NCBI GenBank assembly: GCA_964632315.1
Contig: CAZWEM010000048.1
Span: forward strand, 1-38,721
Direction of reading: 5' to 3'
DNA from: an uncultured archaeon
Lineage (GTDB): Archaea; Asgardarchaeota; Lokiarchaeia; Sigyniarchaeales; SOKP01
DNA: 38,721 nucleotides
In this document: piece by piece, positions 2,637-38,721 of the stretch
Layout of the letters: each line of letters starts with the position of its first letter
Numbering within the stretch: the stretch's first letter is position 1
Position numbers and translations under genes: made by a program
The notes under the pieces: model-generated
What the model was told of the DNA's origin: nothing
Seen by the model: the letters and a program-made list of their open reading frames with translations, nothing else
Databases searched by the model: none

Positions 2637-4565
2637 ATGGGAAAAACACTAACGGAAAAAATCCTTGAAAATCACTTGGTTGAAGGAAGTTTAGAAAAGG
2701 GAACTGATATAGCTATTAAAATAGACCAAACTCTTACGCAAGATGCTACAGGTACGATGGCTTATCTACAATTTGAAGCGATTGGAATAGATAGAGTTCA
2801 AACAGAACTTTCTGTAAGCTATGTGGATCATAATACACTTCAAACTGATTTTAAGAATCCAGACGATCACAGATATCTTCAAAGTATTGCAGCAAGATAT
2901 GGTCTATATTTTTCACGTCCAGGGAATGGGATTTGTCATCAATTACACTTAGAAAGATTTGCTCGCCCTGGAAGAACCTTGCTAGGAAGTGATAGTCACA
3001 CTCCTACTGGAGGAGGAATTGGCAGTATCGCTATTGGAGCGGGTGGATTAGATGTTGCTGCTGCGATGGCGGGAGATTCATTCCGATTAAAAATGCCTAA
3101 AGTAGTAAGTGTCTATCTCACTGGAAAGCTTCCAGATTTTGTTTCGGCAAAAGATGTAATTCTTGAAGTTTTACGTCGAATTGGAGTAAAAGGAGCTGTG
3201 AATAAAGTCTTGGAATATACAGGGCCAGGGGTTAAAACACTTACTGTTCCAGAAAGAGGCACTATTACGAATATGGGTACAGAAACAGGGGCAACTACTT
3301 CAATATTTCCATCAGATGAGATTACCAAGGACTTTTTAGAATCGCAAGAAAGAGGAGATCAATGGACTGAATTAAAACCGGATGGTGATGCCGTTTATGA
3401 TGAAAAAATCGAAATTAATTTGAGCGAATTGGAGCCACTTATCGCAGAACCCCATAGTCCTGGAAATGTAAAGACCGTGAAAGAACTTGAGGGAAAAGCT
3501 GTTGATCAAGTCTGTATTGGTAGTTGTACGAATTCTTCTCTTCGAGATCTAAAAATTGCTTCAAACATGTTAAAGGGAAAAACAGTTAATCAAGATACGG
3601 TTTTAACAATATCTCCTGGTTCAAGACAAGTAGTAGATCATTTGATCAAATCTGGCGAGTATGCCTACTTAGTAGAAGCGGGAGCTAGGATGCTTGAGAA
3701 TGCATGTGGTCCTTGTATTGGGATGGGACTTGCGCCAAAAACAGATGCCGTATCGCTTAGGACATTTAATAGGAATTTCCTCGGAAGAAGTGGTACAAAA
3801 AGCGCTCAAGTATACCTGGTAAGTCCTGAAACTGCTGCTGCTTCTGCCATTAAGGGAAAAATCACAGACCCTAGAACATATGGAAGAATACCAAAAATCG
3901 AAATGCCTAAGAAATTCAACGTGAATGATAACATGATCATTCCACCTTTATCTCCGGAAAAATCAAAAGAAGTGAATATTGTTAGGGGTCCAAATATCAA
4001 ACCATTACCCGAATTCAATCCGCTACCAGATAAATTAACCGGTGAAGTGCTCTTAAAAGTTGAAGATGATATAACTACTGATCATATAATGCCTGCTGGA
4101 GCGGAAATATTACCATTAAGGTCAAATATTCCAGAGATCAGCAAGTACGTATTTCGAGTTATCGATGAGAACTTCCATGACAGAGCTTTAGAAAAGGATG
4201 GTGGATTCATTATTGGAGGAGAGAATTATGGTCAAGGCAGTTCGCGCGAGCATGCGGCGATTGCTCCAAAGTACCTTGGAATTAAAGCAGTTATCGTGAA
4301 AAGTTTTGCAAGGATCCATCTTGCGAACCTAGTAAATTTTGGAATCGTACCACTGACCTTCATCGATAAAGGAGATTATGATAAGATTGAATCTGAAGAT
4401 CAATTGGAAGTTGATCTAACTACTATTAAAACGGGCAAAGTAAAAATGAAAGATATCTCAAAGAATATCGAGATTGAACTCACTCATTCATTAGGTGAAC
4501 AAGACTTAGAAGAATTAATGGCTGGTGGAAAATTAACACTAATTAAGCAAAAAAAATCAAAATAA
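2637..4565 (+). CDS. acn: Aconitate hydratase (~640 aa type), copy 1
   Basis: IDQTLTQDATGTM, GICHQ, GSDSHT, Fe-S ligands GSCTN and CGPCIG, and swivel domain GENYGQGSSREHA / SFARIH. Confidence 0.92.
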   Translation: MGKTLTEKILENHLVEGSLEKGTDIAIKIDQTLTQDATGTMAYLQFEAIGIDRVQTELSVSYVDHNTLQTDFKNPDDHRYLQSIAARYGLYFSRPGNGICHQLHLERFARPGRTLLGSDSHTPTGGGIGSIAIGAGGLDVAAAMAGDSFRLKMPKVVSVYLTGKLPDFVSAKDVILEVLRRIGVKGAVNKVLEYTGPGVKTLTVPERGTITNMGTETGATTSIFPSDEITKDFLESQERGDQWTELKPDGDAVYDEKIEINLSELEPLIAEPHSPGNVKTVKELEGKAVDQVCIGSCTNSSLRDLKIASNMLKGKTVNQDTVLTISPGSRQVVDHLIKSGEYAYLVEAGARMLENACGPCIGMGLAPKTDAVSLRTFNRNFLGRSGTKSAQVYLVSPETAAASAIKGKITDPRTYGRIPKIEMPKKFNVNDNMIIPPLSPEKSKEVNIVRGPNIKPLPEFNPLPDKLTGEVLLKVEDDITTDHIMPAGAEILPLRSNIPEISKYVFRVIDENFHDRALEKDGGFIIGGENYGQGSSREHAAIAPKYLGIKAVIVKSFARIHLANLVNFGIVPLTFIDKGDYDKIESEDQLEVDLTTIKTGKVKMKDISKNIEIELTHSLGEQDLEELMAGGKLTLIKQKKSK

Positions 4566-4596
4566 ACCAGTTTTCTATTTTCTTTTTATTTATTTA

Positions 4597-10099: not shown

Positions 10100-10150
10100 T
10101 CAATTGATTTTAAACTGAAATGACAAAAAATAAAAAAAGATAGTAGGATT

Positions 10151-11353: not shown

Positions 11354-12409
11354 TTAATATAGGATCTCGGGCGAGATATCCTTCAGCGAGCGACAATTGG
11401 TCATCTTCATAGCTTTAACCAAGGTTTTCTGTAAATAATTCATGTGTATTTTTACTCCTTCAGGGCCCCCTCCTACAGCAGCTCTAATTAGATCTCTTCC
11501 AATTAACACTCCATTAGCTCCAAGAGCTAGCATTTTCAAAACATCATAACCCGTTCTGATACCACCATCAGCTAAAATAGGGATTTGTGTTCCTAGTTCT
11601 TTAACAATTGCAGGTAATACTTCTGCGGTTCCCGGTGTATGATCTAAGACTCGCCCACCATGATTAGAAATAACAATTGCTGATGCTCCTGCATCTTTGG
11701 CGGCTCTAGCATCTTCTAAGCACATTACTCCCTTGATGATAACTGGTAAAGATGTCGATTCAACAAGGTTCCTTATATCTTCAATTGTTTTTCGATAAAC
11801 TGGTCTATTATGCTTAGCCATTGCGTATGATCCGCATCCGTCTATATCGACTCCGACGGCAATGCAATTGGCATCCTCAGCTTTCTTAAAGAATTCAATG
11901 ATCTTCTCTTGATCCCTTGGCTTGACAATTTTAACACCAAGACCCCCAACCTCAGAAATAGCATTTATGCCATAAGAATTTTCTAAAGAATAATTAATTG
12001 AGTCTCCCCTCCATCCAATCGTACCAGCGGATTTACAGCCCATAACAATAGATCTGCAAAATTCAGCTTCGGAAATGACTTCCTCTCCTCCAAAGCTATG
12101 GACGCCTGCTGTACTAGCTCCCATTATCGGCATGGAAAGTTCTCTTCCAAAAAAATCATAGCTCGTATCGGGTTCAAAGTGATCACCAATGAGATGCATT
12201 TTTAATCGAATTTTATTTAGTGCTTCATAGTTATTATTAAAACTATATCCAGCCCCAGTTCCTCCAATTCCCAGTGGCCTTCCATAACTCTGCCCTTCAC
12301 ATAACTTGGTTGCTTCTCCATCACAATTCCGATAAACAGCACAAATTCCTTTTAACTTCTCTCTTGCTTTATTTCTAACATCTTCTAAGGTTAAGTCTTT
12401 TTCACTCAT
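11354..12409 (-). CDS. FMN-dependent alpha-hydroxy-acid dehydrogenase/oxidase family protein
   Basis: LPVIIKG, SNHGGR and DGGIRTGYDVLKMLALGA. Start moved from 12427 to ATG 12409 because GGAGG at 12421-12425 looks like its RBS. Confidence 0.88.
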   Translation of the reverse strand: MSEKDLTLEDVRNKAREKLKGICAVYRNCDGEATKLCEGQSYGRPLGIGGTGAGYSFNNNYEALNKIRLKMHLIGDHFEPDTSYDFFGRELSMPIMGASTAGVHSFGGEEVISEAEFCRSIVMGCKSAGTIGWRGDSINYSLENSYGINAISEVGGLGVKIVKPRDQEKIIEFFKKAEDANCIAVGVDIDGCGSYAMAKHNRPVYRKTIEDIRNLVESTSLPVIIKGVMCLEDARAAKDAGASAIVISNHGGRVLDHTPGTAEVLPAIVKELGTQIPILADGGIRTGYDVLKMLALGANGVLIGRDLIRAAVGGGPEGVKIHMNYLQKTLVKAMKMTNCRSLKDISPEILY

Positions 12410-12416: not shown

Positions 12417-13823
12417 TTAACCTCCACTCGTTATCGTTCTTTTAGGATCTAATATTTCGTCTAAATTTTCTTCAAATTCTAAACCCATTTCTAATATTAC
12501 TTGTTTAACGTTTTTTCCTTCCTTGTAAGCCTTTTGTGCAATTTCAGAAGCTTTATCATATCCGATATAAGGGTTTAGATTGGTAGCTATCATTAGTAAA
12601 TTGTCTAAATCACTTTTAATTTTACTTTCATTTACTTCTAAACCAATCAAACATTTATCAATAAAGGAATCGATACCTCTGCAAATCAAGGTAAGTGATT
12701 CCAATAAATTATGAATCATTATGGGTTTGCAGATATTCAAATCCAAAATGCTTCCCATCATTTCTGAATTCGAGATTGATACACACATTCCCATAACATA
12801 CAAGCATACTTGAATTAATGCTTCGGATTGTGTTGGGTTAATTTTACCGGGCATTATAGACGATCCGGGCTCATTTGCAGGCAATTTTAATTCAGAAAGT
12901 CCTGCTCTTGGACCACTCCCCATCCATCGTATATCATTTGCCATTTTGACAAGAGATAACGCTAAAAGGTTAATTGTACTACTAAGTTTAACGATGGTAT
13001 TATGAGAGGCTATACCTTCCGCTAGCACTTCTTTAGACCTTAATGAAAATCCAGTTACATCAGATAATTTTTTTATGACTAAAGCTTGAAAGTCTTTAGT
13101 AGTATTGATTCCAGTTCCTAAAACAGTACCTCCAAGAGGTATGGCGCTTAATTCTCCCAAATCAGAATTTAAACGATTTTTAGTAATTATGATCTGTTGT
13201 TTATATACTTTAAATTCAAGTGAGAGAGGAATCGGAACTGCATCTTGTAAGTGTGTTCTTCCAACTTTTAAAACATTTTTAAACTCTACTATTTTTTGAT
13301 CTAAAGCTTTTACCAACTTATCTAAGGTTGGATATAGGTCTTCTTTCATCGAATGCAATGCTGAAATGTGCATGGTAGTTGGGATTACATCATTTGATGA
13401 TTGAGACATGTTTACATCGTCATTAGGATGAACAGGTGATTTTTTCCCTTTTTCAAAGCCAAGGATCTCGTTTGCCCTGTTCGCTAACACTTCATTCATA
13501 TTCATGTTCATTTGAGTTCCTGAGCCAGTTTGGAATACATCAATTGGAAATTGATCAAAATGTCGTTGTTCATTTAGAATTTCATCAATAGCTTGTAGTA
13601 TCGCTTTAAATTTCTCTTCATCCAAGGATCCTAAATCTTTATTAGCTAAGAGGGCAGCCTTTTTTACTTCAGCTAAAGATTTTAAAAAATTATTAGAAAA
13701 TCTTTTAGTGCTAATTTGAAAGTTTTCTATGGCTCTCTGAGTATTTACTCCCCAATACGCATTATTAGGTACCTTAATTTCTCCTAAAACGTCTTTTTCT
13801 ATTCGATATTCATCATCATTCAT
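12417..13823 (-). CDS. fumC: Class II fumarate hydratase
   Basis: TGSGTQMNMN, HPNDDVNMSQSSND, GRTHLQDA and signature GSSIMPGKINP. Start reassigned to ATG 13823 (MNDDEYRIEKD), since the ORF-track extension overlaps sdhB. Position after sdhAB favours fumarase over aspartase. Confidence 0.87.
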   Translation of the reverse strand: MNDDEYRIEKDVLGEIKVPNNAYWGVNTQRAIENFQISTKRFSNNFLKSLAEVKKAALLANKDLGSLDEEKFKAILQAIDEILNEQRHFDQFPIDVFQTGSGTQMNMNMNEVLANRANEILGFEKGKKSPVHPNDDVNMSQSSNDVIPTTMHISALHSMKEDLYPTLDKLVKALDQKIVEFKNVLKVGRTHLQDAVPIPLSLEFKVYKQQIIITKNRLNSDLGELSAIPLGGTVLGTGINTTKDFQALVIKKLSDVTGFSLRSKEVLAEGIASHNTIVKLSSTINLLALSLVKMANDIRWMGSGPRAGLSELKLPANEPGSSIMPGKINPTQSEALIQVCLYVMGMCVSISNSEMMGSILDLNICKPIMIHNLLESLTLICRGIDSFIDKCLIGLEVNESKIKSDLDNLLMIATNLNPYIGYDKASEIAQKAYKEGKNVKQVILEMGLEFEENLDEILDPKRTITSGG

Positions 13824-14598
13824 GTTTACTCCAATCTTTGCGTAATTCTTGATTAATTGCCGTTCCGGGCATGACATTTTTAGGGCAAACTTGATTACAA
13901 ATAAAGTATCTCTCGCATGCAGGCACCCCATCTTCTTTCATCACTCGAGAAACAATTGAATTTTGTTTTTCATGCTGAATTCTTGAATCATAAACAAATC
14001 TACTTGCTTTAGCTAATTGAGCAGGTCCAAGATAATTTGGATTTTTATTACTTACGGGACAAGCCCAACAGAGACCGCATAAAATGCAATATACGTATCT
14101 TTCAATGCGTTCCATTTGTTCAGGAGATTGTTTAGATTCCGGTTGTTTATAATTCCATTCCCTCGTAAAAAAGGGCTCGATTTCTCGAAAATGATTCCAG
14201 AACTTTTCTAAATCAACGACTAAATCTTTTATGACTCTCATATTAGGTGCTGGTTCAATTAAAATTTCGTGTTCTCTATCCCATGCTGGAACGTCTCCAT
14301 AAATAAAATCAATATTCTTGCTCCTTATGAATTTTTCGATGGGTTGAATAATTTCATTTACTGAGGAAATTTGAGTTTTACAAGCTAACATCGGCACCTT
14401 ATTTATTGTCATCCCACAAGAGCCACAGACTGCTCCTCTACAAGCGTATCGAAATGCTAAAGTAGAATCTAAATGATCTTGGATGTAGAATAATGCATCT
14501 AATACATCCATTCCCTTTTCGATTGGAACTTCAAAGCGATCATAGCGTACACTTCCATCGCCTGGATTTCTATAAATTAAAAATTTTTGTTTTTCCAT
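13816..14598 (-). CDS. sdhB: Succinate dehydrogenase/fumarate reductase iron-sulfur subunit
   Basis: RYACRGAVCGSC (2Fe-2S), CILCGLCWACP (4Fe-4S), CERYFICNQVCP (3Fe-4S), VIKDLVVD and YLGPA. Confidence 0.92.
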   Translation of the reverse strand: MEKQKFLIYRNPGDGSVRYDRFEVPIEKGMDVLDALFYIQDHLDSTLAFRYACRGAVCGSCGMTINKVPMLACKTQISSVNEIIQPIEKFIRSKNIDFIYGDVPAWDREHEILIEPAPNMRVIKDLVVDLEKFWNHFREIEPFFTREWNYKQPESKQSPEQMERIERYVYCILCGLCWACPVSNKNPNYLGPAQLAKASRFVYDSRIQHEKQNSIVSRVMKEDGVPACERYFICNQVCPKNVMPGTAINQELRKDWSKHE

Positions 14599-16313
14599 TA
14601 GTATTCACGCTCCTTTACTTCAAATATACCTAAAATTACTGGCTTTGTTTTTAATTCTAAATCACCATTTTTTCCTCTTGAGACAATAGAATGAACAAGA
14701 AAATTTTCATCATTACGTGTATCAAAGTCTCGTCTAAAATGAGCTCCTCTACTCTCCTTTCTCCATAATGCTGCATAAGTAGTCACTTCTGCAATATCAA
14801 GCATCGATCTTAACTCAAGCGTACGTGTTAAGCCATAATTGAACTTTCTATCCGATGTATCTACATGTACTTCTTTAAAATCTTTTTGTAATTGTCTTAA
14901 TGTGTCTAGTGCTACTTGCATGTCTTTCTCATTTCTGAATACTCCAACGTTACTATTCATGATAGAACCCATCTCATCTCTAATCTCTGCGGGTTTCTTT
15001 CCTTCATTATTTTGCCATCTAGAAAATAATTCCTCAACATTGTTAAGGACTTGTTCTTCAGCTCCTTTGAGCATATTTGTGGAGAAACTTTTCGGTAATC
15101 CTCTTTCTTTCAACTTTTTACCTATTAATCTCCCAAACACAGCAGTCTCAAGCAAAGAATTACCTCCTAACCTATTTGCTCCATGAACAGAAAGACATGA
15201 ACATTCACCCAAAACCCAGAGCCCATTTAAATCAGTCTCACCAACATCTCCCTTATATTTTGTTGCAATCCCTCCCATACTATAATGCTGACCAGGTTGG
15301 ATGGGTATGGGTTCTTCGATGGGATCAATTCCAGCAAAATGCATGCTAATTTCTCGGATCCCGGGTAATTTTTTATTGATTGTATCTGCTCCTAGGTGTG
15401 TCAGGTCTAAATTAACATACTCATCTTCAAAAGCATTCCCTTCTAAAACCTCGGTATCTATTGCTCTAGCTACAATATCTCGAGGAGCTAATTCCATTGC
15501 TTCAGGAGCATACTTGTTCATGAATCTTTCATGTTTATTATTATATAACAATCCCCCTTCACCTCGCGCACCCTCAGTTATTAAAATATTTGAGCCATAT
15601 AATGTAGTAGGATGAAATTGAACAAATTCACAATCCTCCATTGGCACTCCTGCGCGAAAAGCAGCCCCTACTCCGTCTCCAGTATTAATTACTGAGTTTG
15701 TAGAACGCTTGTAGATTCTACCAAATCCTCCTGTAGCAAGTATAACAGATGGAGCTCGAAAGATTACCAATTCCCCACTTGTGATATCTAATGAGATTAA
15801 TCCTGTAACGTTATTTTCAATTTTAATTAGGTCAATCAAAAAATATTCATCGAAAAACTTTACATCAAATCGAACACACTGCTGATATAACGTGTGTAAG
15901 AGTGCGTGTCCCGTCCTATCTCCTGCAAAACAAGTCCTTGGAAATCCTGCACCTCCAAAAGGACGTTGATTTATTAATCCATTCTCCAATCTCGAAAAAG
16001 GTGTTCCCATACTTTCAAACTCTAATACTGTTTTGGGGGCTTCCTCACACATCAACATGGCAATGTTTTGATCTGCAACAAAGTCGGCTCCCTTCACGGT
16101 GTCATATGCATGAACTTTTGGTGAGTCATCCTTTCCCTCTTCTAAATTACCTAATGCTGCATTTATCCCTCCTTGCGCATTAATAGAATGACTCCTTACA
16201 GGATAGACCTTACTTATTATTGCCGTGTTATATTTATCTGATAACTCTAAACCTATTCTCAGACCGCTTAAACCAGCCCCAACTATTACTACATCAAATT
16301 CTTCTAACCTCAT
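14598..16313 (-). CDS. sdhA: Succinate dehydrogenase/fumarate reductase flavoprotein subunit
   Basis: GAGLSG, covalent-FAD His in RSHSINAQGG, QFHPT, LITEGARGEGG, HYSMGG, HGANRLGGNSL and ESRGAH. TAATG coupling to sdhB. Confidence 0.95.
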   Translation of the reverse strand: MRLEEFDVVIVGAGLSGLRIGLELSDKYNTAIISKVYPVRSHSINAQGGINAALGNLEEGKDDSPKVHAYDTVKGADFVADQNIAMLMCEEAPKTVLEFESMGTPFSRLENGLINQRPFGGAGFPRTCFAGDRTGHALLHTLYQQCVRFDVKFFDEYFLIDLIKIENNVTGLISLDITSGELVIFRAPSVILATGGFGRIYKRSTNSVINTGDGVGAAFRAGVPMEDCEFVQFHPTTLYGSNILITEGARGEGGLLYNNKHERFMNKYAPEAMELAPRDIVARAIDTEVLEGNAFEDEYVNLDLTHLGADTINKKLPGIREISMHFAGIDPIEEPIPIQPGQHYSMGGIATKYKGDVGETDLNGLWVLGECSCLSVHGANRLGGNSLLETAVFGRLIGKKLKERGLPKSFSTNMLKGAEEQVLNNVEELFSRWQNNEGKKPAEIRDEMGSIMNSNVGVFRNEKDMQVALDTLRQLQKDFKEVHVDTSDRKFNYGLTRTLELRSMLDIAEVTTYAALWRKESRGAHFRRDFDTRNDENFLVHSIVSRGKNGDLELKTKPVILGIFEVKEREY

Positions 16314-16368: not shown

Positions 16369-17241
16369 TTATTTGAACGATTCGATTAGACTTCTAAATT
16401 TATCCATATCTAAGTCGCGTAAATATAAAGGTCGCTTATCCTTATCGTAGATTTGAATACTTTCTTCATAAATTCGGCGATTTGGATTTAAATATAATAC
16501 ACCTAAAGGTAATTTTTTAGATTGTACAGCTATTTTTAATGCATTAGCTTGATCGTAAGGGTCATAATCATCTTCTACATAATAACTATTTTCTTTATAC
16601 CACTGAAAAGTATTTACCCGATTGAAAGTCACGCAAGGGCATAAAAGATCTATGAGAGCATAACCCTTATGTTTTATTGCTTTTTTTAAGATTTCTTTTG
16701 TTTCATCAATATCACCAGTGAAGGCCCGTGCTACGAAGGATGCTTTAAGAGAAATTGCTACTGCAACTGGATTAAATGGTTCAATAATTACTCCATTAAT
16801 TTGAACAGGTGTCTTAAAACCAAGCTGACTTGTGGGAGATGCTTGACCTTTTGTCAATCCATAAACTTGATTATTATGAGCAATATTTACTATATTCGGA
16901 TTATATCGAATAGTGTGAATGAAATGATTGCCCCCTTCACTATAAGTACATCCATCTCCACTCATCGCAATAACGGTCAACTCGGGGTTAGCTGCTTTCA
17001 TACCTAAAGCATTTGACAAATATCTTCCATGTAGTCCATTGAAACTTTGAGAGTTAATAAAGTGAGGAAACTTACCTGCTTGTCCAATGCCAGAGACTAA
17101 TACAACATCTTGTTGTTTCAATTTTAACTCGGATAATGCTTCTTTCATAATCCTTAAGGCATTATAATTACCGCAACCTGGACACCAGTGAATTTCGATG
17201 TCCAAATCCCATATTTCTTTTTTTTCTTCTTTATCTGACAA
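16369..17241 (-). CDS. korB: 2-oxoacid:ferredoxin oxidoreductase beta subunit (TPP-binding)
   Basis: WCPGCG, SGIG, LHGR, GDG...[11 protein letters not shown] and PCVTFN. TTG start behind GAGGTGA. 2-oxoglutarate specificity is inferred from context only. Confidence 0.88.
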
Positions 17242-17242: not shown

Positions 17243-18973
17243 TTAGATCACCTCAATAGCCTTTTTGATTTGATCCATTATCTCTTCAACTGAGAATGTA
17301 TAACCAGAATAGTTTAAAATCAGATGATCTACCTTACGATGCGTTTCAAGCTCAACTAAATTAGCAAATTGCCCCGTAGGATTACTCTCGATAACAATTA
17401 GTTTTTCTGCTTTTGAAATATAGTCATTCGTAATTTTGTTCAATGGATAAACTTGTTTATAATGTAGAAATCCGATATCAGATCGATTTAAATTATCAAG
17501 AGCTTCTTTAATCAAATAAAAGCTACTACCCCAGCTAATTACAAGATATTTAATCGCATCAGAACCGATATATTCGGGGGGAATTGCATTTTCTTTAATT
17601 AAAGAAAGCTTTTTTAATCTTTTTTCAACCGTTCGCATTCTAAGATCAGGATCTTCGGTGATATCTCCACTTTCAGTATGGGTATGAGAGTCAGCATCTA
17701 CTAAACCGTCCCCATATCCTGGAATACCACGGGGTGATATAATATCCTCAGTGAATTTATATCTTTCATAATCTTGCTCAGTTTTTATGATAAAATTCTT
17801 TCTTTCTAAATGTTCATAATCAATTTTACTTACATTGTAATAAGAATCAACAAGATATTGGTCTGTTAGAATAAACACGGGTACTTGATATTCTTGGGTT
17901 AAGTTAAATGCATTTTGAGTCAACAAAAATGATTCCTCAATAGAGTTAGGGGCTAAAATTATTCTTGGAAAATACCCTGCTCCAGCGTGCAAGACCAAGT
18001 TCAAGTCCTCTTGAGCAGTTCGAGTTGGCATTCCAGTGGCTGGTCCTGGTCGCTGTCCTACAATAATTACAAGGGGTAATTCACTCATTCCAGTTAAACT
18101 CACTCCTTCCCCCATTAATGAAAAGCCGCCACCCGAAGTAGATACTAAAGCACGAGCACCAGCATAAGAAGCGCCTAGTGCTTTATTTATTACGCTAATC
18201 TCGTCTTCAGATTGATCAACTATTATTGAAAATTCAGGACCGTGTTGTGCGAGAAATGTACCTATTCCTGTGCTTGGGGCCATTGGATAAAAAGTAACGT
18301 AGTTGACTCCACCTGCTATGGCACCTAATGCGATCCCTTGAGTGCCGTCGATAATGTAATCATCAATTACATCATCATTTTTTTGTATTGATTTTACTTT
18401 TGAGAGCTTCCCTTCATCGATTAACTCCATAGCTTTATCAAATCCTTTATCTGCTGCTTTTATATTATTTTGAATAATTTCCGATCCTTTCGACTTAAAA
18501 TTCTCCTCAAGTAAATCATGAAGAATACTTTTGTCTGCCCCCAAAATATTGCAAATCAATCCCAGAACTATTATATTCGCATAAACTTTACCACCGACAT
18601 CTTTAGACATTTCTAAAAAAGGTACCTCTATTTTTATTCCGCTAGGTTCTGAATCAGTGTCAAGAAACTCCTTTTCTCCAAGTATTATGCTTTCTGTAGT
18701 TAATTTGCCTTTTAGATGAGGAATAGCTGCATCATTTAACGGAAATAAAAAGTCAATTCTTTCGCTATATGCTCTAACTTTAACTGATGAGACTCTAATT
18801 GAGGTTGAGTTTACGCCACCCCTAACCCTAGACATGTATTCTCTCGTAGCAAATACGTTGAAACCCGATTTTTTAAGTGTCTTAGTAAGCAATGCTTCTA
18901 CAGTCTTAATACCTTGACCAGCAGCACCACATAACACCAAAGATATATCCTCTTTTTCGTTTAATTTTTCCAT
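17243..18973 (-). CDS. korA: 2-oxoacid:ferredoxin oxidoreductase alpha subunit (gamma-alpha fusion)
   Basis: [34 protein letters not shown] and [11 protein letters not shown]. Confidence 0.9.
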
Positions 18974-19191: not shown

Positions 19192-20364
19192 TTAAAGTAA
19201 CTCGTGTTCGATTCGAAAGTAGTAATTATGGAATAATGAAGAAATAAGATATGATTTAATCAACCTAAAATCCTGTTTATACCTTAAAAGATCATAAATG
19301 TAATAAGTTCGCTTAAACAACCAAGCTACAAATCCACTGAAAACAAACTTATTGAACAATTGGGCTACTCCATAATTTTTACCTAAAGATATGAACATGA
19401 ACCTAAGCGGCTTTAGACGCAACGGTTTTAATTTTTTCTCTTTTACCTTCCTAAAGAGCATTTTGGCTAAATAATCTGCTTGAATCTTAGCGATCTGAGC
19501 TAGCATTGGTGCATTTCCACCGATATATGGAAAATTGGAGGCATCACCAATGGAATATACATCTTCTAAACCTTCTACTTGACAGAAATGATTAACTTCA
19601 TAGGCTCTGTCGAATTGAAGATCAGAATCAATCATTATTGGTCTTGATCCAATGCAGATTATGATAAACTCAAAAGGATACTCCTTATCTCCAACGAAAA
19701 TAGATTTATTTTCAATCTTGGTCACTCTTTGATTGTAGAAAACATTGATATCCAGCTTTTTCATCTTTTTATTGATTATCGCATGAAACTCAGGAATACC
19801 TGGAAACAATTTTTTTTCTGCTACGAATATATCGATAATAATCTCGTTTTTCAACGTTTTTGCTAAAGAAGCAATCTCCGTAGCAAGCTCTATTCCTACT
19901 GCACCTCCTCCAATAATCGAAATAACAGGACGATGTCTACCAAAAGCGATCTTTAAGTGTTCATTAATCCTAATTGCATCAAATATATTTTTCATAGTGG
20001 GATAATTTTCTGAACCTTTAATAACCTTTAAAGCAGCGGCCCCAGGTGCGATAATTAAGTAGTCATATTTATAAAACTGAGAATTTTTTAGTTCAACTTC
20101 CTTTTTCTTGAAATAAATTTTTTTTACTGTTGATCGAATAAACAATGCTCGTTTTAACTCTTTTCTAATGTCAAAGAGAGGTAGCTCCTTCGGAATTTGT
20201 CCTACACATGCTTCATGTAATAGAGTATTATAAAGAAAATGATGGGATGGATTTATTAATAATACATCAAAATTTTCGAACGTTTCAATCTTTTTTGCTA
20301 ACCTAAATCCAGCAAATCCCGCTCCAATGATGATTACATTTAATCTTTTCGTTGAAACTTTCAT
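19192..20364 (-). CDS. ndh: FAD-dependent oxidoreductase, type II NADH dehydrogenase-like
   Basis: IIGAGFAG, YDYLIIAPG, IIGGGAVGIELA, YSIGD, AQIA and a C-terminal amphipathic segment SGFVAWLFKRTYY. Confidence 0.72.
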   Translation of the reverse strand: MKVSTKRLNVIIIGAGFAGFRLAKKIETFENFDVLLINPSHHFLYNTLLHEACVGQIPKELPLFDIRKELKRALFIRSTVKKIYFKKKEVELKNSQFYKYDYLIIAPGAAALKVIKGSENYPTMKNIFDAIRINEHLKIAFGRHRPVISIIGGGAVGIELATEIASLAKTLKNEIIIDIFVAEKKLFPGIPEFHAIINKKMKKLDINVFYNQRVTKIENKSIFVGDKEYPFEFIIICIGSRPIMIDSDLQFDRAYEVNHFCQVEGLEDVYSIGDASNFPYIGGNAPMLAQIAKIQADYLAKMLFRKVKEKKLKPLRLKPLRFMFISLGKNYGVAQLFNKFVFSGFVAWLFKRTYYIYDLLRYKQDFRLIKSYLISSLFHNYYFRIEHELL

Positions 20365-21999: not shown

Positions 22000-22060
22000 A
22001 TCATTCACCAGTTTAATTTAGATTTTAACAGTTAATCCTTTATGAAAGTCATCTGAAATA

Positions 22061-24019: not shown

Positions 24020-25318
24020 TCACCTCTGAGAGATCGGCACGTATTCTTTGTTAATATCGCCCACATAGCGAAGTCGAGGACGGATTAATTTATTATCAGA
24101 GAGCTGTTCTATCGCATGAGCAACCCAACCAGCACTTCTTGATGCAGCGAATAAAGGCGTAAATAATTTTGTTGGAATTCCCAATGCGTGAAGTAATCCT
24201 GCAGAATAAAGATCAACATTAGGATAAATATTTTTTTCTTCAATCATAAAATCCTTCAGGGTTTCAGTCATTTCATATATATTATCGATTTGCTCATGAT
24301 ATTTCCTATGTTCCATATCAGGAATCTTTTCAAAAGTTTCTCCACTATCAATTTTACCCCAAAATTTCTTAGAAAGCTCTCTTAAAATTTTAGCACGTGG
24401 ATCCCAAACTTTATAGACTCTATGTCCAAAGCCCATTATCAAGTCTTTTTTTTCAAGTTTATTTTTCGCCCAAGGAATCACATTATCCTTCCTTTTAATG
24501 TCATCTAACATTGCCCTAATTACACGTTCATTAGCTCCACCATGTAAAGGACCCCTAAGAGTGCCTATTGCACTTGTAATACCACTATAAATATCAGAAA
24601 GTGTCGAGACTGTGACTCGACAAGAGAATGTAGATGAGTTTATGGAGTGATCGGCATGACAAATGAGAACCTTATCAAAAGCAGAGGTGAATTCCTCATC
24701 TGGTTCATTTCCAGTCATCATGTAATAATAATTTCCAGCATGACATAGGTTTTTTGAGGGCTCAACAAGAGGTAGATTTGATTGAATGCGATGAGAAAAA
24801 GCCAAAATTGTTGGAATTTTTGCGATAATCCTTATTCCTTTTCTGATATTAGCTTCTTCTGAAAAGTCGTAATCATCAGAATCATATAATGATAGTGCTG
24901 AAATTGCAGTACGGAGTAATTCGATTCTAGTGGTTTCACGCGGAAAACTTTTTAAAATTGTTAATATATTGTCGGGGATTTGTCTTTCATTGATTAACTC
25001 ATTCTCTAAATCTCCAAGCTGTTTTTTATTTGGCAACTCTCCATAAATAAGAAGATAGATTACTTCCTCGAATGAGGAATTTTCTACGAGAGTCTTGAGA
25101 GAATACCCCCTATAATATAATTTTCCATGAATTCCATCAATATATGTAATTTTACTCTCATCGACATAGATTCCTACTAAACCTTTATATGTCTTCGAGC
25201 GATCGATATCGCATAACTTTGGTTCTGTTTCTTCTTCATAATCTTCACACGCATATGAGGTAGTTGTCTCACATGGTTCCGATTTCTGATTCACTTTATC
25301 CTCAATCATTAGACTCAA
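24020..25318 (-). CDS. gltA: Citrate synthase (Si-type; 2-methylcitrate synthase not excluded)
   Basis: GKLYYRGY, HADH, GPLHGGANE, MGFGHRVYK-x-x-DPR, YPNVD and LIRPR. Confidence 0.92.
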   Translation of the reverse strand: MSLMIEDKVNQKSEPCETTTSYACEDYEEETEPKLCDIDRSKTYKGLVGIYVDESKITYIDGIHGKLYYRGYSLKTLVENSSFEEVIYLLIYGELPNKKQLGDLENELINERQIPDNILTILKSFPRETTRIELLRTAISALSLYDSDDYDFSEEANIRKGIRIIAKIPTILAFSHRIQSNLPLVEPSKNLCHAGNYYYMMTGNEPDEEFTSAFDKVLICHADHSINSSTFSCRVTVSTLSDIYSGITSAIGTLRGPLHGGANERVIRAMLDDIKRKDNVIPWAKNKLEKKDLIMGFGHRVYKVWDPRAKILRELSKKFWGKIDSGETFEKIPDMEHRKYHEQIDNIYEMTETLKDFMIEEKNIYPNVDLYSAGLLHALGIPTKLFTPLFAASRSAGWVAHAIEQLSDNKLIRPRLRYVGDINKEYVPISQR

Positions 25319-27024: not shown

Positions 27025-27051
27025 CATATTTATAAGAGATAAGGTGTTTTT

Positions 27052-29266: not shown

Positions 29267-30391
29267 ATAAGATTACTTGAATATGAAAGTAAAAAAATAT
29301 TTGCTGATTATACAATTCCATTAGTACCTAATATTGTAATAGAGAAGGACGACGATCTAAAAAAAAAAGTTTCTGGATTTAAATTTCCTGCAATAATTAA
29401 ATCTCAAATTGCTATTGGTAGTAGGAAGAAAGCAGGTTTAATAAAAACAGCCAATTCTCAAAATGAAGCGGTAAAATTATGTAAAGAATTCTTCAATCGT
29501 AAAGTAGCTGGTTATGGAGTTAAGGCGATTTTGATCGAAGAACTTGTCGACATTAAACATGAATATTACGTTTCAGTGGCATTAGATGTATCCGAAAGAA
29601 AGTTCTACCTAATTGCAAGCATAAAAGGTGGGATAGATATTGAAGAAGTTTCCAAAAAAAGCCCTGAAGATATTTTTAAAATTAGTTTTTCCTATTCACA
29701 AGGTTTAACAGATGAAATTGCGCAAGAAATGGCTCATAAATTAGGTTTTAATGATAAATTAGAAGTAAGCACAGTCGAAATACTTAAAAAATTATGGAAG
29801 GTTACGAAAGATCTCGAGGCTCAACTAGTCGAAATAAACCCGCTAATACTTACACCATCAGGATTAATTGCAGTCGACGCTAAAATGATATTAGATGATG
29901 ATTCAGCTTTTAGACAGCCAATTGTTCGTGATTTAAAAATAAAAAAGGAAACCGAATTGGAAAAAATTGCGAACGAAGCAGGATTTTCCTTCGTCGAACT
30001 AGATGGAGACATTGGTATTCTTGCAAACGGAGCAGGTTTAACAATGGCATTATTAGACGTACTTTCTAGTATGGGATTAAAGCCTGCTAATTTTTTAGAT
30101 GTTGGTGGGGGTGCAAGTAAAGAGCGCGTGTATAAAGCTTTAGAGTTACTATTTAAATTAAAACCAAATGGTATTTTAATAAATATATTTGGGGGGATAA
30201 CGAGATGTGATGTCGTAGCTAAAGCAATTATCCAAGCATTAGAAGATTTCAAAAATGCCCCACCAATCATAATAAGATTAACAGGGACGAATGATAAAGA
30301 AGGTATTGAGCTTCTAAAAAATGATGGTATAAATGCATACCAAGAAGTCATGGAAGCTGTAAATAAGTTGAAAGAGGTGTTAAATGAATAA
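29267..30391 (+). CDS. sucC: Succinyl-CoA synthetase beta subunit (non-canonical ATA start)
   Basis: The frame is open 88 codons upstream of the ORF-track start: (I/M)RLLEYESKKIFADYTIP...IKSQIAIGSRKKAG. AGGAGG RBS at 29253-29258. Also shows EINPL, NGAGLTMA, PANFLDVGGG and NIFGGITRCD. Confidence 0.88.
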   Translation: MRLLEYESKKIFADYTIPLVPNIVIEKDDDLKKKVSGFKFPAIIKSQIAIGSRKKAGLIKTANSQNEAVKLCKEFFNRKVAGYGVKAILIEELVDIKHEYYVSVALDVSERKFYLIASIKGGIDIEEVSKKSPEDIFKISFSYSQGLTDEIAQEMAHKLGFNDKLEVSTVEILKKLWKVTKDLEAQLVEINPLILTPSGLIAVDAKMILDDDSAFRQPIVRDLKIKKETELEKIANEAGFSFVELDGDIGILANGAGLTMALLDVLSSMGLKPANFLDVGGGASKERVYKALELLFKLKPNGILINIFGGITRCDVVAKAIIQALEDFKNAPPIIIRLTGTNDKEGIELLKNDGINAYQEVMEAVNKLKEVLNE

Positions 30392-31252
30392 ATGTATATT
30401 AATGAAAACTCCAAAGTGGTAGTCCAAGGAATTACTGGTAAGCAAGGAACGTTTCATACAAAATTAATGCTTGACTATGGCACTAAAATTGTTGCAGGTG
30501 TCACACCCGATAAGGGAGGGTTGGAAGTACATAAAGTGCCTGTGTTTAATACAATGAAAGAAGCTATTAAAGAAACAGACTGTGATACTAGTATTGTTTT
30601 TGTACCTGCAAAATTCACGTATGGAGCTGTCAAGGAAAGTATTTTAGCTGGAATAAATATGACTGTCATTATAACAGAGGATGTACCAGTTTTCGATATG
30701 TTGAGGTTATTTGAACTTTCTAGAAGGAAAAATACTCATCTAATTGGCCCTAATTGTCCTGGAATGATGATTCCAGATAAGATCAAACTTGGAATAATGC
30801 CAGCAGACTTGTGTCATTTTGGAAATGTGGCGATTATTTCAAAGAGTGGTACTTTATCTTACGAAATAACTAAAGCAATAGGAAATGCAGATATCGGAGT
30901 TTCAGCTTATATTGGGATTGGAGGTGATCCAGTCAGAGGAATTACTATGAAAGAAGCTACTCAATATTATGTTGAAGATGAACAAACAAAATTGATAGTT
31001 TTAATCGGAGAAATAGGAAGCGATGAAGAGGAGAAAACTGCGAAATACTTATCAGATCAATCTGATAAACCTGTCGTTGCTTATATTGCAGGAAAGAGTG
31101 CTCCTGAAGGCAAAAGAATGGGACATGCTGGAGCAATTATTTCAGGAGATGTTGGTACAGCTGAAGGAAAGATAAAGGCATTAAAGAATGTTGGAGCGCG
31201 AATAGCATTTACACCATGGGAAGTTCCAAAGTTGATTAAAGAAGTATTATAG
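30392..31252 (+). CDS. sucD: Succinyl-CoA synthetase alpha subunit
   Basis: VVQGITGKQGTFH, IGPNCPG, SKSGTLSYE, IGIGGD, GEIG and phospho-His motif RMGHAGAI. Confidence 0.93.
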   Translation: MYINENSKVVVQGITGKQGTFHTKLMLDYGTKIVAGVTPDKGGLEVHKVPVFNTMKEAIKETDCDTSIVFVPAKFTYGAVKESILAGINMTVIITEDVPVFDMLRLFELSRRKNTHLIGPNCPGMMIPDKIKLGIMPADLCHFGNVAIISKSGTLSYEITKAIGNADIGVSAYIGIGGDPVRGITMKEATQYYVEDEQTKLIVLIGEIGSDEEEKTAKYLSDQSDKPVVAYIAGKSAPEGKRMGHAGAIISGDVGTAEGKIKALKNVGARIAFTPWEVPKLIKEVL

Positions 31253-32270: not shown

Positions 32271-32297
32271 TACTCACCAGAAAATGTTGAAGTACAA

Positions 32298-35158: not shown

Positions 35159-36451
35159 TTGGCAACGAAAAATATTTATGAATTTGACTCTAAAAAGCTC
35201 ATCGCAAGGGAATTGCCGAAATATTATCCCGGATTTCAGTATCACAACAAATTAGCTTTAATCGAATGCGACACCGATATTGAGAAGGTAATTGAACAGA
35301 ATCCGTGGATGAAAACTGAAAAAGTTGTAGTTAAACCTGATCAACTCTTTGGAAAACGAGGTAAAGCAAATTTAATTTTACTTGATGCTGATTGCGATCA
35401 AATGAAAGGTTTTTGTAATGATAATTTGGAGAAGGTCTGCGTAATATCCGGCATTGAAGGCGAAATCACTCGTTTACTCGTGGAACCATTCATTCCGCAT
35501 GATAAAGAATATTATGTTTCGTTTACTACTGAAAGAGAAAATAATGTAATCCATTTTAGTTTCGAAGGAGGAATTTTTGTCGAAGAAAATTGGGACAAGG
35601 TTATACACATACCTATTCCTGTGGATCAAAAGATTCAGGATTTCGATCTCTCCAGTAAGATGCCCGATTTAGGGGATTTAAAGGATGAGTTAATTCCATT
35701 CATTAAAGGTTTATATCAAGTGTTTGTTGATCAAGATTTTGCGTTTCTTGAAATTAATCCTTTTGCCATCACCAACGAGAAGAAAATAGTACCATTAGAC
35801 GTAAAAGCTCGACTCGATGATACTGCAGCATTCTTACATCTTGATACTTGGGGTAACCCTCAAAATCCAATCGAGTTTCCAAGTGGTTTTGGTCAAAAGA
35901 TGAGTCCTGAAGAAGAGATGATTAAAAATCTGGATGAAAAAACAGGAGCTTCATTGAAATTAACTATTCTTAACAGGAAAGGGCGTATTTGGACCATGGT
36001 CGCTGGAGGAGGAGCTAGTGTTATATATACGGATACAATAGCAGATCTTGGTCTTGCGGCCGAACTATCGAATTATGGTGAATATTCTGGTAATCCCAGT
36101 CAAGAACACACCCAAATATATGCCCAAACACTAATAGATCTCATTACTGAAAATCCAGATCCTGAAGGCAAAGAGAAATACTTAATTATAGGTGGAGGAA
36201 TTGCTAATTTTACTGATGTAAAAGCAACATTCAGAGGGATTGTCGCTGCAATCAAAAATTCGGTAGAAAAATTAAAGAAAGCAAACGTGAAGATATTCGT
36301 TCGTAGAGGAGGACCGAATGAAAAGCAAGGTCTGGAATTGATGAGACAAGTGGGAGATGAAACAGGCATTCCAATAGAAATTTACGATCGATATAATAGC
36401 ATGACACGTCCAGTCGCCAGAATGAAACAAAAAATGGAGGGCGAAGAATAA
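35159..36451 (+). CDS. aclB: ATP-citrate lyase small subunit (ATP-grasp plus citrate-binding domain)
   Basis: VVKPDQLFGKRGK, GASLKLTILN-x-x-GRIWTMVAGGGASVIY, NYGEYSG, GGGIANFTDV and VRRGGPN. TTG start. Confidence 0.95.
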   Translation: MATKNIYEFDSKKLIARELPKYYPGFQYHNKLALIECDTDIEKVIEQNPWMKTEKVVVKPDQLFGKRGKANLILLDADCDQMKGFCNDNLEKVCVISGIEGEITRLLVEPFIPHDKEYYVSFTTERENNVIHFSFEGGIFVEENWDKVIHIPIPVDQKIQDFDLSSKMPDLGDLKDELIPFIKGLYQVFVDQDFAFLEINPFAITNEKKIVPLDVKARLDDTAAFLHLDTWGNPQNPIEFPSGFGQKMSPEEEMIKNLDEKTGASLKLTILNRKGRIWTMVAGGGASVIYTDTIADLGLAAELSNYGEYSGNPSQEHTQIYAQTLIDLITENPDPEGKEKYLIIGGGIANFTDVKATFRGIVAAIKNSVEKLKKANVKIFVRRGGPNEKQGLELMRQVGDETGIPIEIYDRYNSMTRPVARMKQKMEGEE

Positions 36452-38287
36452 ATGGAAGATTATGAATTATTTGATGAGAATACTCAAGCCATTATTTACG
36501 GACTTCAAGCAAATCCTGTCCAGAGAATGCTTGATTTTGATTATGTTTGTCGCAGGAAGAAGCCTTCCGTAGCTGCAATTATCAGAGAAACTCAAGATGC
36601 GGCTATAGCATATCACAAAGTCTTCTGGGGAAGCCAAGAGATTGTCATACCAGTTTATAAAACGCTTAAACTAGCAATAAAAAAGCATCCTAGCGCAGAT
36701 GTCATGATTAATTTTGCTTCGTTTAGATCTGCATACGATACCAGCATGGAAGCACTAGAATCTGATACGATCAGAGTAGTCGTTATTATAGCTGAGGGCG
36801 TCCCAGAAACGCAGAGCCGATTGCTAATTAAGGTTGCGAACAGACGAAATAAAATTATTATTGGTCCAGCAACGGTGGGAGGAATTCGTGCAGGAGCTTT
36901 CAAAATCGCTAACACGGCTGGAACCTTGGAAAATATCAAACTTTCAAAGCTTTATCGACCCGGTTCAGTAGGGTTTGTTAGTAAAAGTGGTGGACTTTCA
37001 AACGAGATGAATTTTATGATCGCTGAAAATACTGATGGAATATATGAATGTATAGCAATTGGTGGCGACCGGTATCCTGGATCTCGGTTAATTGATCATT
37101 TGTTAAGATATGAAGCTAATCCTAAAATTAAGATGTTAGTCTGCTTGGGAGAAATTGGAGGCACTGAAGAATATGAAATTGTTGAAGCTTTAAACACAAA
37201 AGAGATCACAAAACCTATTGTGATATGGGTTACGGGGACTGCTGCTCGCATACTTCCTAAAGGACTTCAATTTGGCCATGCTGGAGCAATGGCTGGGAGT
37301 GATAGAGAAACTGCAGAGGCGAAGAATAAAGCTTTAAAGGAAGCTGGGGCATTAGTACCAGATTCTTATGAGGATTTCGACAAATTGATTCATCGATGCT
37401 ATGAAGATTTGAAGAGCAAGGGAATAATAAAGGAGAAAGAAGAAGTAGAACCACCTGAAATACCAATGGATTTCAAGGAAGCGGTTCGTTTAGGATTAGT
37501 TAGAAGACCAACTGATGTTGTCGTGACAATTTCTGATGATCGTGGTGACGTTCCAACATTTGCTGGCGTTGGACTTGATAAAATTATTGAAGAAGACAAA
37601 TCTCTAGGATTTGTTATCGGATTATTGTGGTTTAAACGAGAGCTACCCGAATTCGCGCAAAAATTCATCGAAATGGTCATTAAATTAACGGCAGACCACG
37701 GTCCAGCTGTTTCAGGGGCTCATAATGCAATTATAACTGCAAGAGCGGGTAAGGATTTGATGTCTTCTCTTGCTTCCGGAATTCTTACAATAGGGCCTCG
37801 ATTTGGAGGTGCAATCTCGGATGCGGCAAAATATATGAAAGAAGCTCTCCAGAAAGAAATGAAACCACAAGAATTCGTCAAATACATGAAAGATGTAGTT
37901 AAGATTAACATTCCTGGCATTGGACATCGCATTAAATCAGTCCAGAACCCAGACATAAGAGTTGTTCTGCTTAAAAAGTTTGTCATGGAGAATTTCAAGA
38001 AACATCCTCATCTCGATTTTGCTTTAGAAGTGGAAAAAATCACGACTGCTAAGAGAAACAACTTAATTCTGAACGTTGATGGTTGCATTGGTATAACTTT
38101 TCTTGATCTTTTAGAGAACTTAGATTTTTCACCCGAAGAAATTGAAGATGTAATAAGCAGTGAAGCCTTGAACGGGTTATTTGTGCTTGGACGTTCTATA
38201 GGAATGATGGGGCACGTGTTTGATCAAAAGCGTCAGAGAGCGGGTTTATATCGACAACCATGGGATGAAATTTTGTTTTCTGAATAA
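36452..38287 (+). CDS. aclA: ATP-citrate lyase large subunit (CoA-binding, phospho-His and citryl-CoA lyase domains)
   Basis: VQRMLDFDYVC, NFASFRSAY, IGPATVGGI, QFGHAGA, ADHGPAVSGAHN, IPGIGHRIKS and LILNVDG. Confidence 0.96.
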   Translation: MEDYELFDENTQAIIYGLQANPVQRMLDFDYVCRRKKPSVAAIIRETQDAAIAYHKVFWGSQEIVIPVYKTLKLAIKKHPSADVMINFASFRSAYDTSMEALESDTIRVVVIIAEGVPETQSRLLIKVANRRNKIIIGPATVGGIRAGAFKIANTAGTLENIKLSKLYRPGSVGFVSKSGGLSNEMNFMIAENTDGIYECIAIGGDRYPGSRLIDHLLRYEANPKIKMLVCLGEIGGTEEYEIVEALNTKEITKPIVIWVTGTAARILPKGLQFGHAGAMAGSDRETAEAKNKALKEAGALVPDSYEDFDKLIHRCYEDLKSKGIIKEKEEVEPPEIPMDFKEAVRLGLVRRPTDVVVTISDDRGDVPTFAGVGLDKIIEEDKSLGFVIGLLWFKRELPEFAQKFIEMVIKLTADHGPAVSGAHNAIITARAGKDLMSSLASGILTIGPRFGGAISDAAKYMKEALQKEMKPQEFVKYMKDVVKINIPGIGHRIKSVQNPDIRVVLLKKFVMENFKKHPHLDFALEVEKITTAKRNNLILNVDGCIGITFLDLLENLDFSPEEIEDVISSEALNGLFVLGRSIGMMGHVFDQKRQRAGLYRQPWDEILFSE

Positions 38288-38345
38288 ATTTAATCTTCAA
38301 AATTTAAATATGAACAAAAATATAAAATGAAAAGAGGTAACAAAT

Positions 38346-38721
38346 ATGGAAGATATGATCCAAAAAGCCAAAGAACACTTTGGAAATATTGTAAAGGAAC
38401 AGCTTGAACGAGTGGAAGCGTTAAAAAACGCTGAAGATTGGATTGATTACACTCAAGTAAAACCAATCATTATTGGAGTTGCTGGTGGAGACGGAATTGG
38501 GCCTGAAATTACAAACCATGCCCGTAAAATCATGGAATTCCTTCTTAAAGAAGAAATCGAAGAAGGAAAGGTTGAAATTCGAGATATAGAAGGACTAACA
38601 ATTGAAAATCGGGCAAAACACATGAAAGCCATCCCTGACGATGTGTTGAAACAGTTGAAAGAATGTAATGTAATTTTAAAAGGACCGACACTTACACCGC
38701 GCAAAGGAGATGGATGGCCCA
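38346..38721 (+). CDS. Isocitrate/isopropylmalate family dehydrogenase, 5' part (truncated by window end); probably isocitrate dehydrogenase
   Basis: Not in the ORF track. Manual translation gives MEDMIQKAKEHF...GDGIGPEI...VILKGPTLTPRKGDGWP with no stop. GAGGT RBS at 38334-38338. Confidence 0.82.
   Translation, partial: MEDMIQKAKEHFGNIVKEQLERVEALKNAEDWIDYTQVKPIIIGVAGGDGIGPEITNHARKIMEFLLKEEIEEGKVEIRDIEGLTIENRAKHMKAIPDDVLKQLKECNVILKGPTLTPRKGDGWP

Follow-up and report, generated by a model that had tools for sequence, protein, structure and literature searches.

Contig CAZWEM010000048.1 of an uncultured archaeal assembly (GCA_964632315.1), the 38,721 nt of which are referred to here as the window, carries a near-complete set of tricarboxylic acid (TCA) cycle genes within about 36 kb, among them those of both a Si-type citrate synthase (CS) and an ATP-citrate lyase (ACL). 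The set had been described in the original prediction, made from the sequence alone, and all genes listed there were found in place, with family support and intact catalytic motifs (Table 1). In the 4.45-Mb, 32%-GC source genome each is present as a single true copy, the two aconitases excepted, and the chance of eight independently placed units falling within 36 kb is approximately 2e-14. About 18.6 of the 36 kb code for TCA enzymes, on both strands, and the region is a neighbourhood and not one operon. A canonical malate dehydrogenase (MDH), likewise noted as missing in the prediction, is indeed absent from the cluster, and its slot holds an FMN-dependent 2-hydroxy-acid dehydrogenase.

Origin of the contig and its citrate-step genes

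The DNA had been thought to be archaeal and possibly Asgard, and AclA identity and gene order place it in Lokiarchaeia. AclA is 81-87% identical to proteins of Promethearchaeota (Lokiarchaeia) metagenome-assembled genomes (MAGs), 77% to that of Ca. Lokiarchaeum ossiferum B35 and 76% to that of Promethearchaeum syntrophicum MK-D1. While the 8.6% contamination of the bin (completeness 99.5%) and its few high-GC contigs could hint at a bacterial contig or a chimeric join, the GC content of the window is 0.346, the GC content at third codon positions (GC3) is even, at 0.21-0.30 along the whole contig, the same gene order occurs in relatives, and 30 of 30 bins of the right 20 kb of the window are covered in each of three marsh metagenomes from different studies. 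Given the base composition, the AclA similarity and the metagenome coverage, such an origin is highly improbable and was rejected; because the codon GC is even, the gene order recurrent and the marsh coverage full, the contig is archaeal, Lokiarchaeial and not a chimera. The best-matching metagenomes are from salt marsh and marsh, the habitat being organic-rich marsh sediment. Small contigs of the bin (C36, C74, C80, C82, C87 and others) are richer in GC (0.49-0.70) than the genome (0.32) and are likely contamination, which leaves the window (contig C48) unaffected. Locus L031 (DATKTW010000007.1) and several JBHL loci, with AclA 79-87% identical and a Lokiarchaeial gene order, come from records named Nanopelagicaceae bacterium, Hodarchaeota, Hermodarchaeota, Odinarchaeota or Thorarchaeota, and the labels of L031 and the JBHL loci are probably wrong.

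The closest solved counterparts of both ACL subunits are chains of the Methanothrix enzyme, which comes from an aceticlastic methanogen. For AclA this match (Table 1) is followed by human ACLY (E 3e-219) and the Chlorobium-type 6hxj (E 9e-126), and the motifs GHAGA, DHG, GIGH and NVDG are retained; for AclB it is 6hxi_A, and the citrate-binding IANFT and RRGG are retained. Both subunit architectures are present with intact active sites, as expected of a heteromeric ATP-citrate lyase (EC 2.3.3.8). ACL in Asgard archaea is on record (PMC11976288, 10.1101/2022.10.25.513756), and whether the eukaryotic enzyme may derive from it has been discussed (PMC11976288). The reaction is near equilibrium (5.6 kJ/mol) and proceeds towards citrate with a gain of ATP in Desulfobacter postgatei (10.1101/2025.03.31.646503).

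The contig ends within the isocitrate dehydrogenase (IDH) gene behind aclA, and a 79-nt overlap leads to the rest of the gene on contig C46. No NCBIfam model scored above its cut-off for the IDH, and the completed protein has the Ser-x-Asn-x-x-x-Arg isocitrate motif and the HGTAPR cofactor loop. A leucine- or lysine-pathway paralogue is unlikely, given the isocitrate Ser/Asn motif, the position after aclA in most loci and the substitution of a monomeric IDH at that position in some genomes. In most relatives this position is occupied by a 400-aa dimeric-type IDH, and in MK-D1, B35 and genome G008 by a monomeric NADP-IDH, a non-orthologous replacement in place; the 640-aa aconitase and the 890-aa AcnA, as well as class I and class II fumarases, also interchange between lineages. 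Approximately 2.2 kb past the end of idh lies a LeuA/homocitrate-synthase-family gene (G000:C46:3090-4385, L122), also found 3′ of aclBA-idh in G011 and G006. It might be a Re-citrate synthase of the Dehalococcoides type, but searches gave just 'homocitrate synthase' names and other contexts, and the gene is left unassigned; a Re-citrate synthase here would bring the citrate enzymes of the region to three.

Table 1 Genes of the TCA neighbourhood, in window coordinates
Gene	Product	Coordinates	Strand	Support
acn1	642-aa aconitase, PRK07229 type	2637..4565	+	NF005558, 987 bits (cut-off 612)
	FMN-dependent (S)-2-hydroxy-acid dehydrogenase, three N-terminal Cys	11354..12409	-	PF01070
fumC	class II fumarase	12417..13820	-	best model TIGR00979, 555 bits, below cut-off of 665
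sdhB/frdB	iron-sulfur subunit	13816..14598	-	TIGR00384 above cut-off
sdhA/frdA	flavoprotein, covalent-FAD His	14598..16313	-	TIGR01812, 734 bits (cut-off 567); SHSINAQGG
probable korB	2-oxoacid:ferredoxin oxidoreductase, beta	16369..17241	-	TIGR02177 above cut-off, PRK11869 best
probable korA	2-oxoacid:ferredoxin oxidoreductase, alpha	17243..18973	-	TIGR03710 above cut-off; best solved relative 6n2n
	NDH-2-like pyridine nucleotide oxidoreductase	19192..20364	-	PF07992
ppcA	archaeal phosphoenolpyruvate carboxylase	20542..22008	-	TIGR02751, 585 bits
acn2	second aconitase, 52% identical to acn1	22061..24013	-	NF005558, 920 bits
gltA	Si-citrate synthase	24020..25318	-	TIGR01800 above cut-off; catalytic His/His/Asp motifs
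sucC	374 aa, ATA start	29267..30391	+	NF001913 cut-off reached solely from the ATA start
sucD		30392..31252	+	NF004230 and TIGR01019 above cut-off
aclB	ATP-grasp/citrate-binding ACL subunit	35159..36451	+	PF16114, PF24948
aclA	CoA-binding/phospho-His/citryl-CoA lyase ACL subunit	36452..38287	+	6hxi_B, E 8e-239
idh	isocitrate dehydrogenase, 5′ part	38346..38721	+	PF00180

Distribution of the citrate-step enzymes among relatives

The window was compared with 37 genomes of the genus, MAGs in which a single absence is uncertain, and with 24 genomes of other genera. Within the genus, ACL was found in 30 of the 37 genomes, aconitase in 28, FumC in 33 and the beta subunit of acetyl-CoA synthase (ACS; CdhC) in 30, and SdhA in 10, a KorA orthologue in about 8, Si-CS in 8 and phosphoenolpyruvate (PEP) carboxylase (PEPC) in 4. 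The core aconitase of the genus is acn1, with 80-86% identical orthologues in those 28 genomes; two aconitases occur only in the source genome (G000) and in G010. As to synteny in relatives, a check proposed in the original prediction, the gene order recurs, and the whole set of the window is found in only three of the 37.

No SdhA was found in 20 of the 30 ACL-bearing genomes of the genus and no CS in 22, and seven of those without SdhA are 97-100% complete (G005, G014, G016, G017, G034, G035 and G036). The pattern is more than a matter of MAG gaps since it holds in the closed genomes of MK-D1 and Loki-B35, which have acn-aclB-aclA-icd in a row and in which no Si-CS, SucD above cut-off, SdhA or ACS was found. 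MK-D1 is an amino-acid fermenter whose growth stops upon addition of H2 or formate (PMC7015854). Judged by gene content, ACL in MK-D1 and B35 serves a branch between citrate and 2-oxoglutarate and cannot belong to a closed reductive cycle. With SdhA not found in so many ACL genomes, and SucD and SdhA lacking in MK-D1 and B35, ACL and the C4 half of the cycle are not inherited together. The proposal that ACL is indicative of CO2 assimilation and CS of oxidation is not supported, as ACL is frequent where SdhA or CS is not found, including the closed genomes of cultured heterotrophs. Because it is the routine citrate-step enzyme even in species unable to run the full cycle, ACL is weak evidence for CO2 fixation in Lokiarchaeia.

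Outside the genus, seven of the 24 genomes have ACL only, eight CS only, two both and seven neither, and this extensive mutual replacement suggests that ACL and Si-CS do the same job there. Two relatives of the source genome, G042 and G018, have compact arms korAB-sdhAB-fumC-FMN and sucCD-aclBA-idh, with ACL as the sole Si-type citrate enzyme. In the Hodarchaeales-type loci L072-L076 and L079, aclBA-idh-acn stands beside an anchored sdhCDAB, sucCD and the gene of a class I fumarase; upstream of aclB these loci have a LarA-like gene.

The core set of aconitase, ACL and IDH could also work in the direction of citrate cleavage without autotrophy, in a reductive-carboxylation shunt where glutamate-family amino acids yield 2-oxoglutarate, IDH and aconitase run in reverse, ACL cleaves citrate to acetyl-CoA and oxaloacetate like the eukaryotic ACLY, and SdhAB acts as a fermentative fumarate reductase. 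For this acn-aclBA-icd, the set of MK-D1, would be enough on its own, both IDH types at the locus appear NADP-linked, NADP-linked IDH enzymes being reversible, and the source genome has two glutamate dehydrogenase-motif genes, a malic enzyme, a methylmalonyl-CoA mutase and many peptidases; Asgard SdhA has also been placed in propionate fermentation by Imachi et al. However, the shunt would spend an ATP at a point where KorAB with SucCD, or else an acyl-CoA synthetase, would yield one, the lineages devoid of ACL have CS in its stead, which better fits citrate formation, and an adjoining CS would create an ATP-wasting loop. We therefore regard the shunt as a possible but distinctly less likely arrangement than citrate formation by ACL.

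The 2-oxoglutarate, succinate and malate steps

KorAB scores above the cut-offs of 2-oxoacid:ferredoxin oxidoreductase (OFOR) family models and does not reach those of the 2-oxoglutarate:ferredoxin oxidoreductase (OGOR) equivalog models, and its substrate has to be read from other features. Lys57 of KorB aligns with Arg63 of the M. marinus OGOR and Lys49 of the S. tokodaii OFOR, a position which, from the M. marinus structure, we take to be the carboxylate-binding one. Because of this residue and the linkage to sucCD and sdhAB, KorAB fits a role with 2-oxoglutarate. KorB also has Gln54 in place of a cluster-ligating Cys of the solved OFORs (GIGC to GIGQ), common to orthologues including that of MK-D1, and its proximal Fe-S cluster may be unusual.

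SdhB has three Cys clusters, the last with a 3Fe-4S pattern, and FumC retains GRTHLQDA and GSSIMPGKINP. No membrane anchor for SdhAB was found at the locus or elsewhere in the genome, which has no PF01127 match, and the surroundings of the pair contain no TfrB-type CCG domain and no adjoining NADH module. SdhA matches of 33-38% identity, considered as a second fumarate reductase (TfrA), were identified as NadB in the source genome and rejected. An anchor-less SdhAB 72% identical to this one is present in Ca. Freyarchaeum deiterrae (L189:10001-12474), where it is solitary, with neither TCA neighbours nor an anchor.

At first sight sucC could be taken for a truncated gene, which was rejected upon placing its start at an ATA codon (29267-29269) preceded by a strong GGAGG ribosome site. 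The start position in relatives is ATA, ATT, ATC, GTA, GTG or ATG, and a codon other than ATG or GTG in 13 of 15 relatives; this is perhaps a conserved non-canonical initiation that may damp SucC synthesis.

The protein in the malate slot has the hydroxy-acid oxidase fold that defines its family, a TIM barrel with a catalytic Lys and an HGGR motif. Cys23, Cys29 and Cys37 as well as SNHGGR are invariant among its orthologues, and the three cysteines, in a region predicted with low confidence in the fold, probably bind an Fe-S cluster. The gene lies 10-48 nt 3′ of fumC in 20 of the 21 genomes with a full copy, and in the remaining one immediately before gltA-acnA-sdhAB. Its orthologues adjoin fumC, gltA, acnA, korAB, sdhA or idh, in varying order, in eight of nine Asgard families and in both branches of their tree; the linkage is absent in one family and one genus of Asgard. 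Five non-Asgard relatives and two plasmid-collection matches have no TCA neighbours where neighbours are readable, and the linkage is claimed for Asgard only.

Since malate is an (S)-2-hydroxy acid and its conversion is the only step without an assigned enzyme, the FMN protein is rather likely to be a new NAD-independent MDH, whichever way it works, with lactate or 2-hydroxyglutarate as possible alternative substrates. The literature searched reports no FMN malate dehydrogenase, no PF01070 member with malate activity and no TCA data on Loki-3, and malate:quinone oxidoreductase (Mqo) was not found in the five genomes tested. The basic residues Arg134 and Lys160 were considered as deciding the substrate and dropped, as they do not track the TCA linkage, being present in the family that lacks it and absent in a linked Thorarchaeia-type clade. 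We lean towards oxidative use, the direction in which known family members work, as near relatives of the enzyme carry a rubredoxin fusion and cytochrome bd-like genes are neighbours of its gene in four Hodarchaeales-type loci (judged by eye). If the enzyme does oxidise malate, a new enzyme type would fill the MDH gap noted for Asgard genomes. Elsewhere in the source genome, the sole lactate dehydrogenase (LDH)/MDH-family gene (PF00056) is LDH-type with Gln102, and a COG2055 dehydrogenase on contig C64 is a candidate malate enzyme.

The remaining genes of the window break up the cluster. A GH94-like glycoside phosphorylase, S15 and M19 peptidases and two sulfatases are encoded at 4597-7257, 8264-11287 and 25549-28578, as would suit a heterotrophic diet, and in G032 the M19 peptidase gene comes after sdhB. 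Between sucD and aclB are an ADP-ribosylglycohydrolase (32298-33425) and a 1-Cys-type peroxiredoxin (34162-34830), kept in that position in a few relatives, and a small tandem SH3-domain gene (33777-34121), which in relatives is often immediately 3′ of sucD. The NDH-2-like gene accompanies acn2-gltA in one relative (order ndh2-acn2-gltA, L032). A sigma-70 promoter scan of the window, a model unsuited to archaea, gave hits at chance level. In one rhizosphere RNA run, contigs from a 90-95% alike relative cover parts of the peroxiredoxin, aclB, aclA and idh; the absent cover over gltA is no evidence, and gltA and aclBA are not rankable from that run.

Direction of the cycle and comparison with known systems

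A genome-wide check suggested in the original prediction turned up most of what it named, namely pyruvate:ferredoxin oxidoreductase (POR)-type enzymes, PEP synthase, hydrogenase and Wood-Ljungdahl genes, and did not recover an NAD-linked Arg102 MDH. PEP synthase, pyruvate phosphate dikinase (PPDK) and PEPC are above cut-off and three PorA-like enzymes below their equivalog cut-off, giving the combination of pyruvate synthase, PEP synthase and C3 carboxylase expected of a reductive cycle, and several four- and two-subunit 2-oxoacid oxidoreductases are present. An Mvh/Vhu-like hydrogenase, of the type that evolves H2 in MK-D1, stands beside hdrBC, and there is a second group 3 hydrogenase. CdhA, CdhC, CdhE and FwdA are above cut-offs, and cdhB, a partial cdhD, ftr, mtd and mch were found by similarity or motif; by gene content the Wood-Ljungdahl pathway is present, with carbon monoxide dehydrogenase/acetyl-CoA synthase (CODH/ACS) and a methanofuran/methanopterin C1 branch. 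Neither cytochrome bd, a complex I motif, an Sdh anchor nor Mqo was found in the source genome, and flavodiiron proteins, rubrerythrins and a superoxide reductase-like gene are present.

These genes bear directly on the proposal of a complete reductive TCA (rTCA) cycle, autotrophic or mixotrophic and powered by H2 by way of Mvh-Hdr bifurcation, in which ACL would cleave citrate and CS would serve oxidation. Every step has a candidate gene (for malate, the COG2055 dehydrogenase or the FMN enzyme), KorAB has the basic residue for 2-oxoglutarate binding, the anchor-less SdhAB is co-transcribed with korAB, and the POR-type enzymes, PEP synthase, PPDK, PEPC, hydrogenases and Hdr would support it. 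In contrast, ACL is uncoupled from the remaining cycle across relatives, the genome also has the CODH/ACS route, which costs less and is far better conserved, the LDH/MDH family is represented by the LDH-type gene only, the known FMN hydroxy-acid enzymes are oxidative, with near relatives rubredoxin-fused or beside cytochrome bd-like genes, and CS and ACL are found together in many bacteria. The proposal appears doubtful, and net CO2 fixation, if any, would more likely proceed through CODH/ACS. It is similarly doubtful that a subset of Lokiarchaeia would run the closed cycle reductively in parallel with CODH/ACS to assimilate CO2, reducing fumarate with an enzyme that has no anchor and interconverting malate and oxaloacetate with an FMN/Fe-S oxidoreductase of a kind not described before; if true, a working rTCA cycle would be demonstrated for the first time in an archaeon, one from the sister lineage of eukaryotes.

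With a probability of about one half, we favour a modular, mostly heterotrophic TCA set of an acetogen-like Lokiarchaeon, with ACL probably making citrate and conserving ATP. The core of aconitase, ACL and IDH, the linkage of which is conserved, would connect acetyl-CoA and oxaloacetate to 2-oxoglutarate, with ACL as the default citrate-step enzyme, most likely in the citrate-forming direction. KorAB and SucCD would convert 2-oxoglutarate derived from amino acids or sugars to succinate, ATP and reduced ferredoxin. SdhAB, FumC and the FMN/Fe-S enzyme could close the cycle oxidatively only with a high-potential acceptor at hand, and in its absence the cycle would stay open, with SdhAB passing electrons to fumarate. 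Finally, gltA, acn2, ppcA and the NDH-2-like gene may be a patchy later add-on that favours citrate formation, making it irreversible, and replenishes oxaloacetate.

Several observations weigh against this heterotrophic set. Among aconitase-bearing genomes the exclusion between ACL and CS falls short of significance (Fisher p 0.07, with kin not independent), Hodarchaeales-type genomes carry both enzymes, and the one LeuA/homocitrate-synthase-family protein of MK-D1 is a candidate Re-citrate synthase, in the presence of which ACL could turn to cleavage. In autotrophic bacteria, anchor-less AB pairs encoded next to rTCA genes have been interpreted as fumarate reductases (PMC13147460). The weak point of the favoured arrangement is succinate oxidation, for which no acceptor was found, the genome yielding no anchor, cytochrome bd or complex I; what is shown are the genes, their motifs, order and distribution, from which the mechanism is read.

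Neither the rTCA hypothesis nor the pairing of CS with ACL is new, as the cycle has been proposed for Lokiarchaeia from IDH, OGOR and ACL (Bulzu et al., 2018, 10.1101/385732) and CS commonly co-occurs with ACL in rTCA bacteria (PMC13147460); an archaeal rTCA cycle has also been proposed for Thermoplasmatota (PMC9802188). As far as the available part of Bulzu et al. goes, the lineage, the markers, the lack of sdhCD and a COG2055 protein taken as MDH are the same as here, and the present comparison adds the clustering, the patchy occurrence of CS and SdhAB and the FMN enzyme, and disputes ACL as a marker of direction. ACL is widely taken as a marker of autotrophy in metagenomes; in Lokiarchaeia the marker fails, since the enzyme does the routine work of the citrate step there and a cultured heterotroph carries its genes in one operon with those of aconitase and IDH.

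The Arnon-Buchanan cycle of Chlorobiota, Campylobacterota, Aquificota and Nitrospirota shares with the Lokiarchaeial set the two-subunit ACL, 2-oxoacid:ferredoxin oxidoreductases, SucCD, fumarase, aconitase, IDH, PEP synthase and PEPC, a similar clustering and, in some, an anchor-less AB fumarate reductase-like pair. The Lokiarchaeial set differs, however, in an ACL of the Methanothrix/eukaryote and not the Chlorobium type, in having no NAD-linked Arg102 MDH, in the presence of CODH/ACS and in the lack of SdhA in most ACL-bearing relatives. Sulfate respiration in D. postgatei involves a membrane chain, and a comparable acceptor was not found in the Lokiarchaeial genome. The oxidative TCA cycle of that bacterium (Moller et al. 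1987, cited in 10.1101/2025.03.31.646503) also combines ACL with a ferredoxin-linked 2-oxoglutarate step, and its use of ACL as an ATP-yielding citrate synthase is the working mode proposed here.

The FMN enzyme has the TIM barrel, catalytic Lys and SNHGGR of FMN-dependent (S)-2-hydroxy-acid oxidases and dehydrogenases (PF01070; lactate, glycolate and mandelate oxidase, Desulfovibrio DVU2784), to which it adds the three conserved N-terminal Cys and the MDH slot of TCA clusters; Mqo is alike in the proposed role but unrelated in sequence. The closest solved structures to the Lokiarchaeial ACL are the hetero-oligomeric enzyme of Methanothrix (Methanosaeta) concilii (6hxi) and the eukaryotic ACLA/ACLB and ACLY, with the catalytic motifs kept, whereas the Lokiarchaeial genes are set among a full TCA gene complement. 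The direction in which ACL works in Lokiarchaeia bears on what the archaeal forerunner of the eukaryotic ACLY did.

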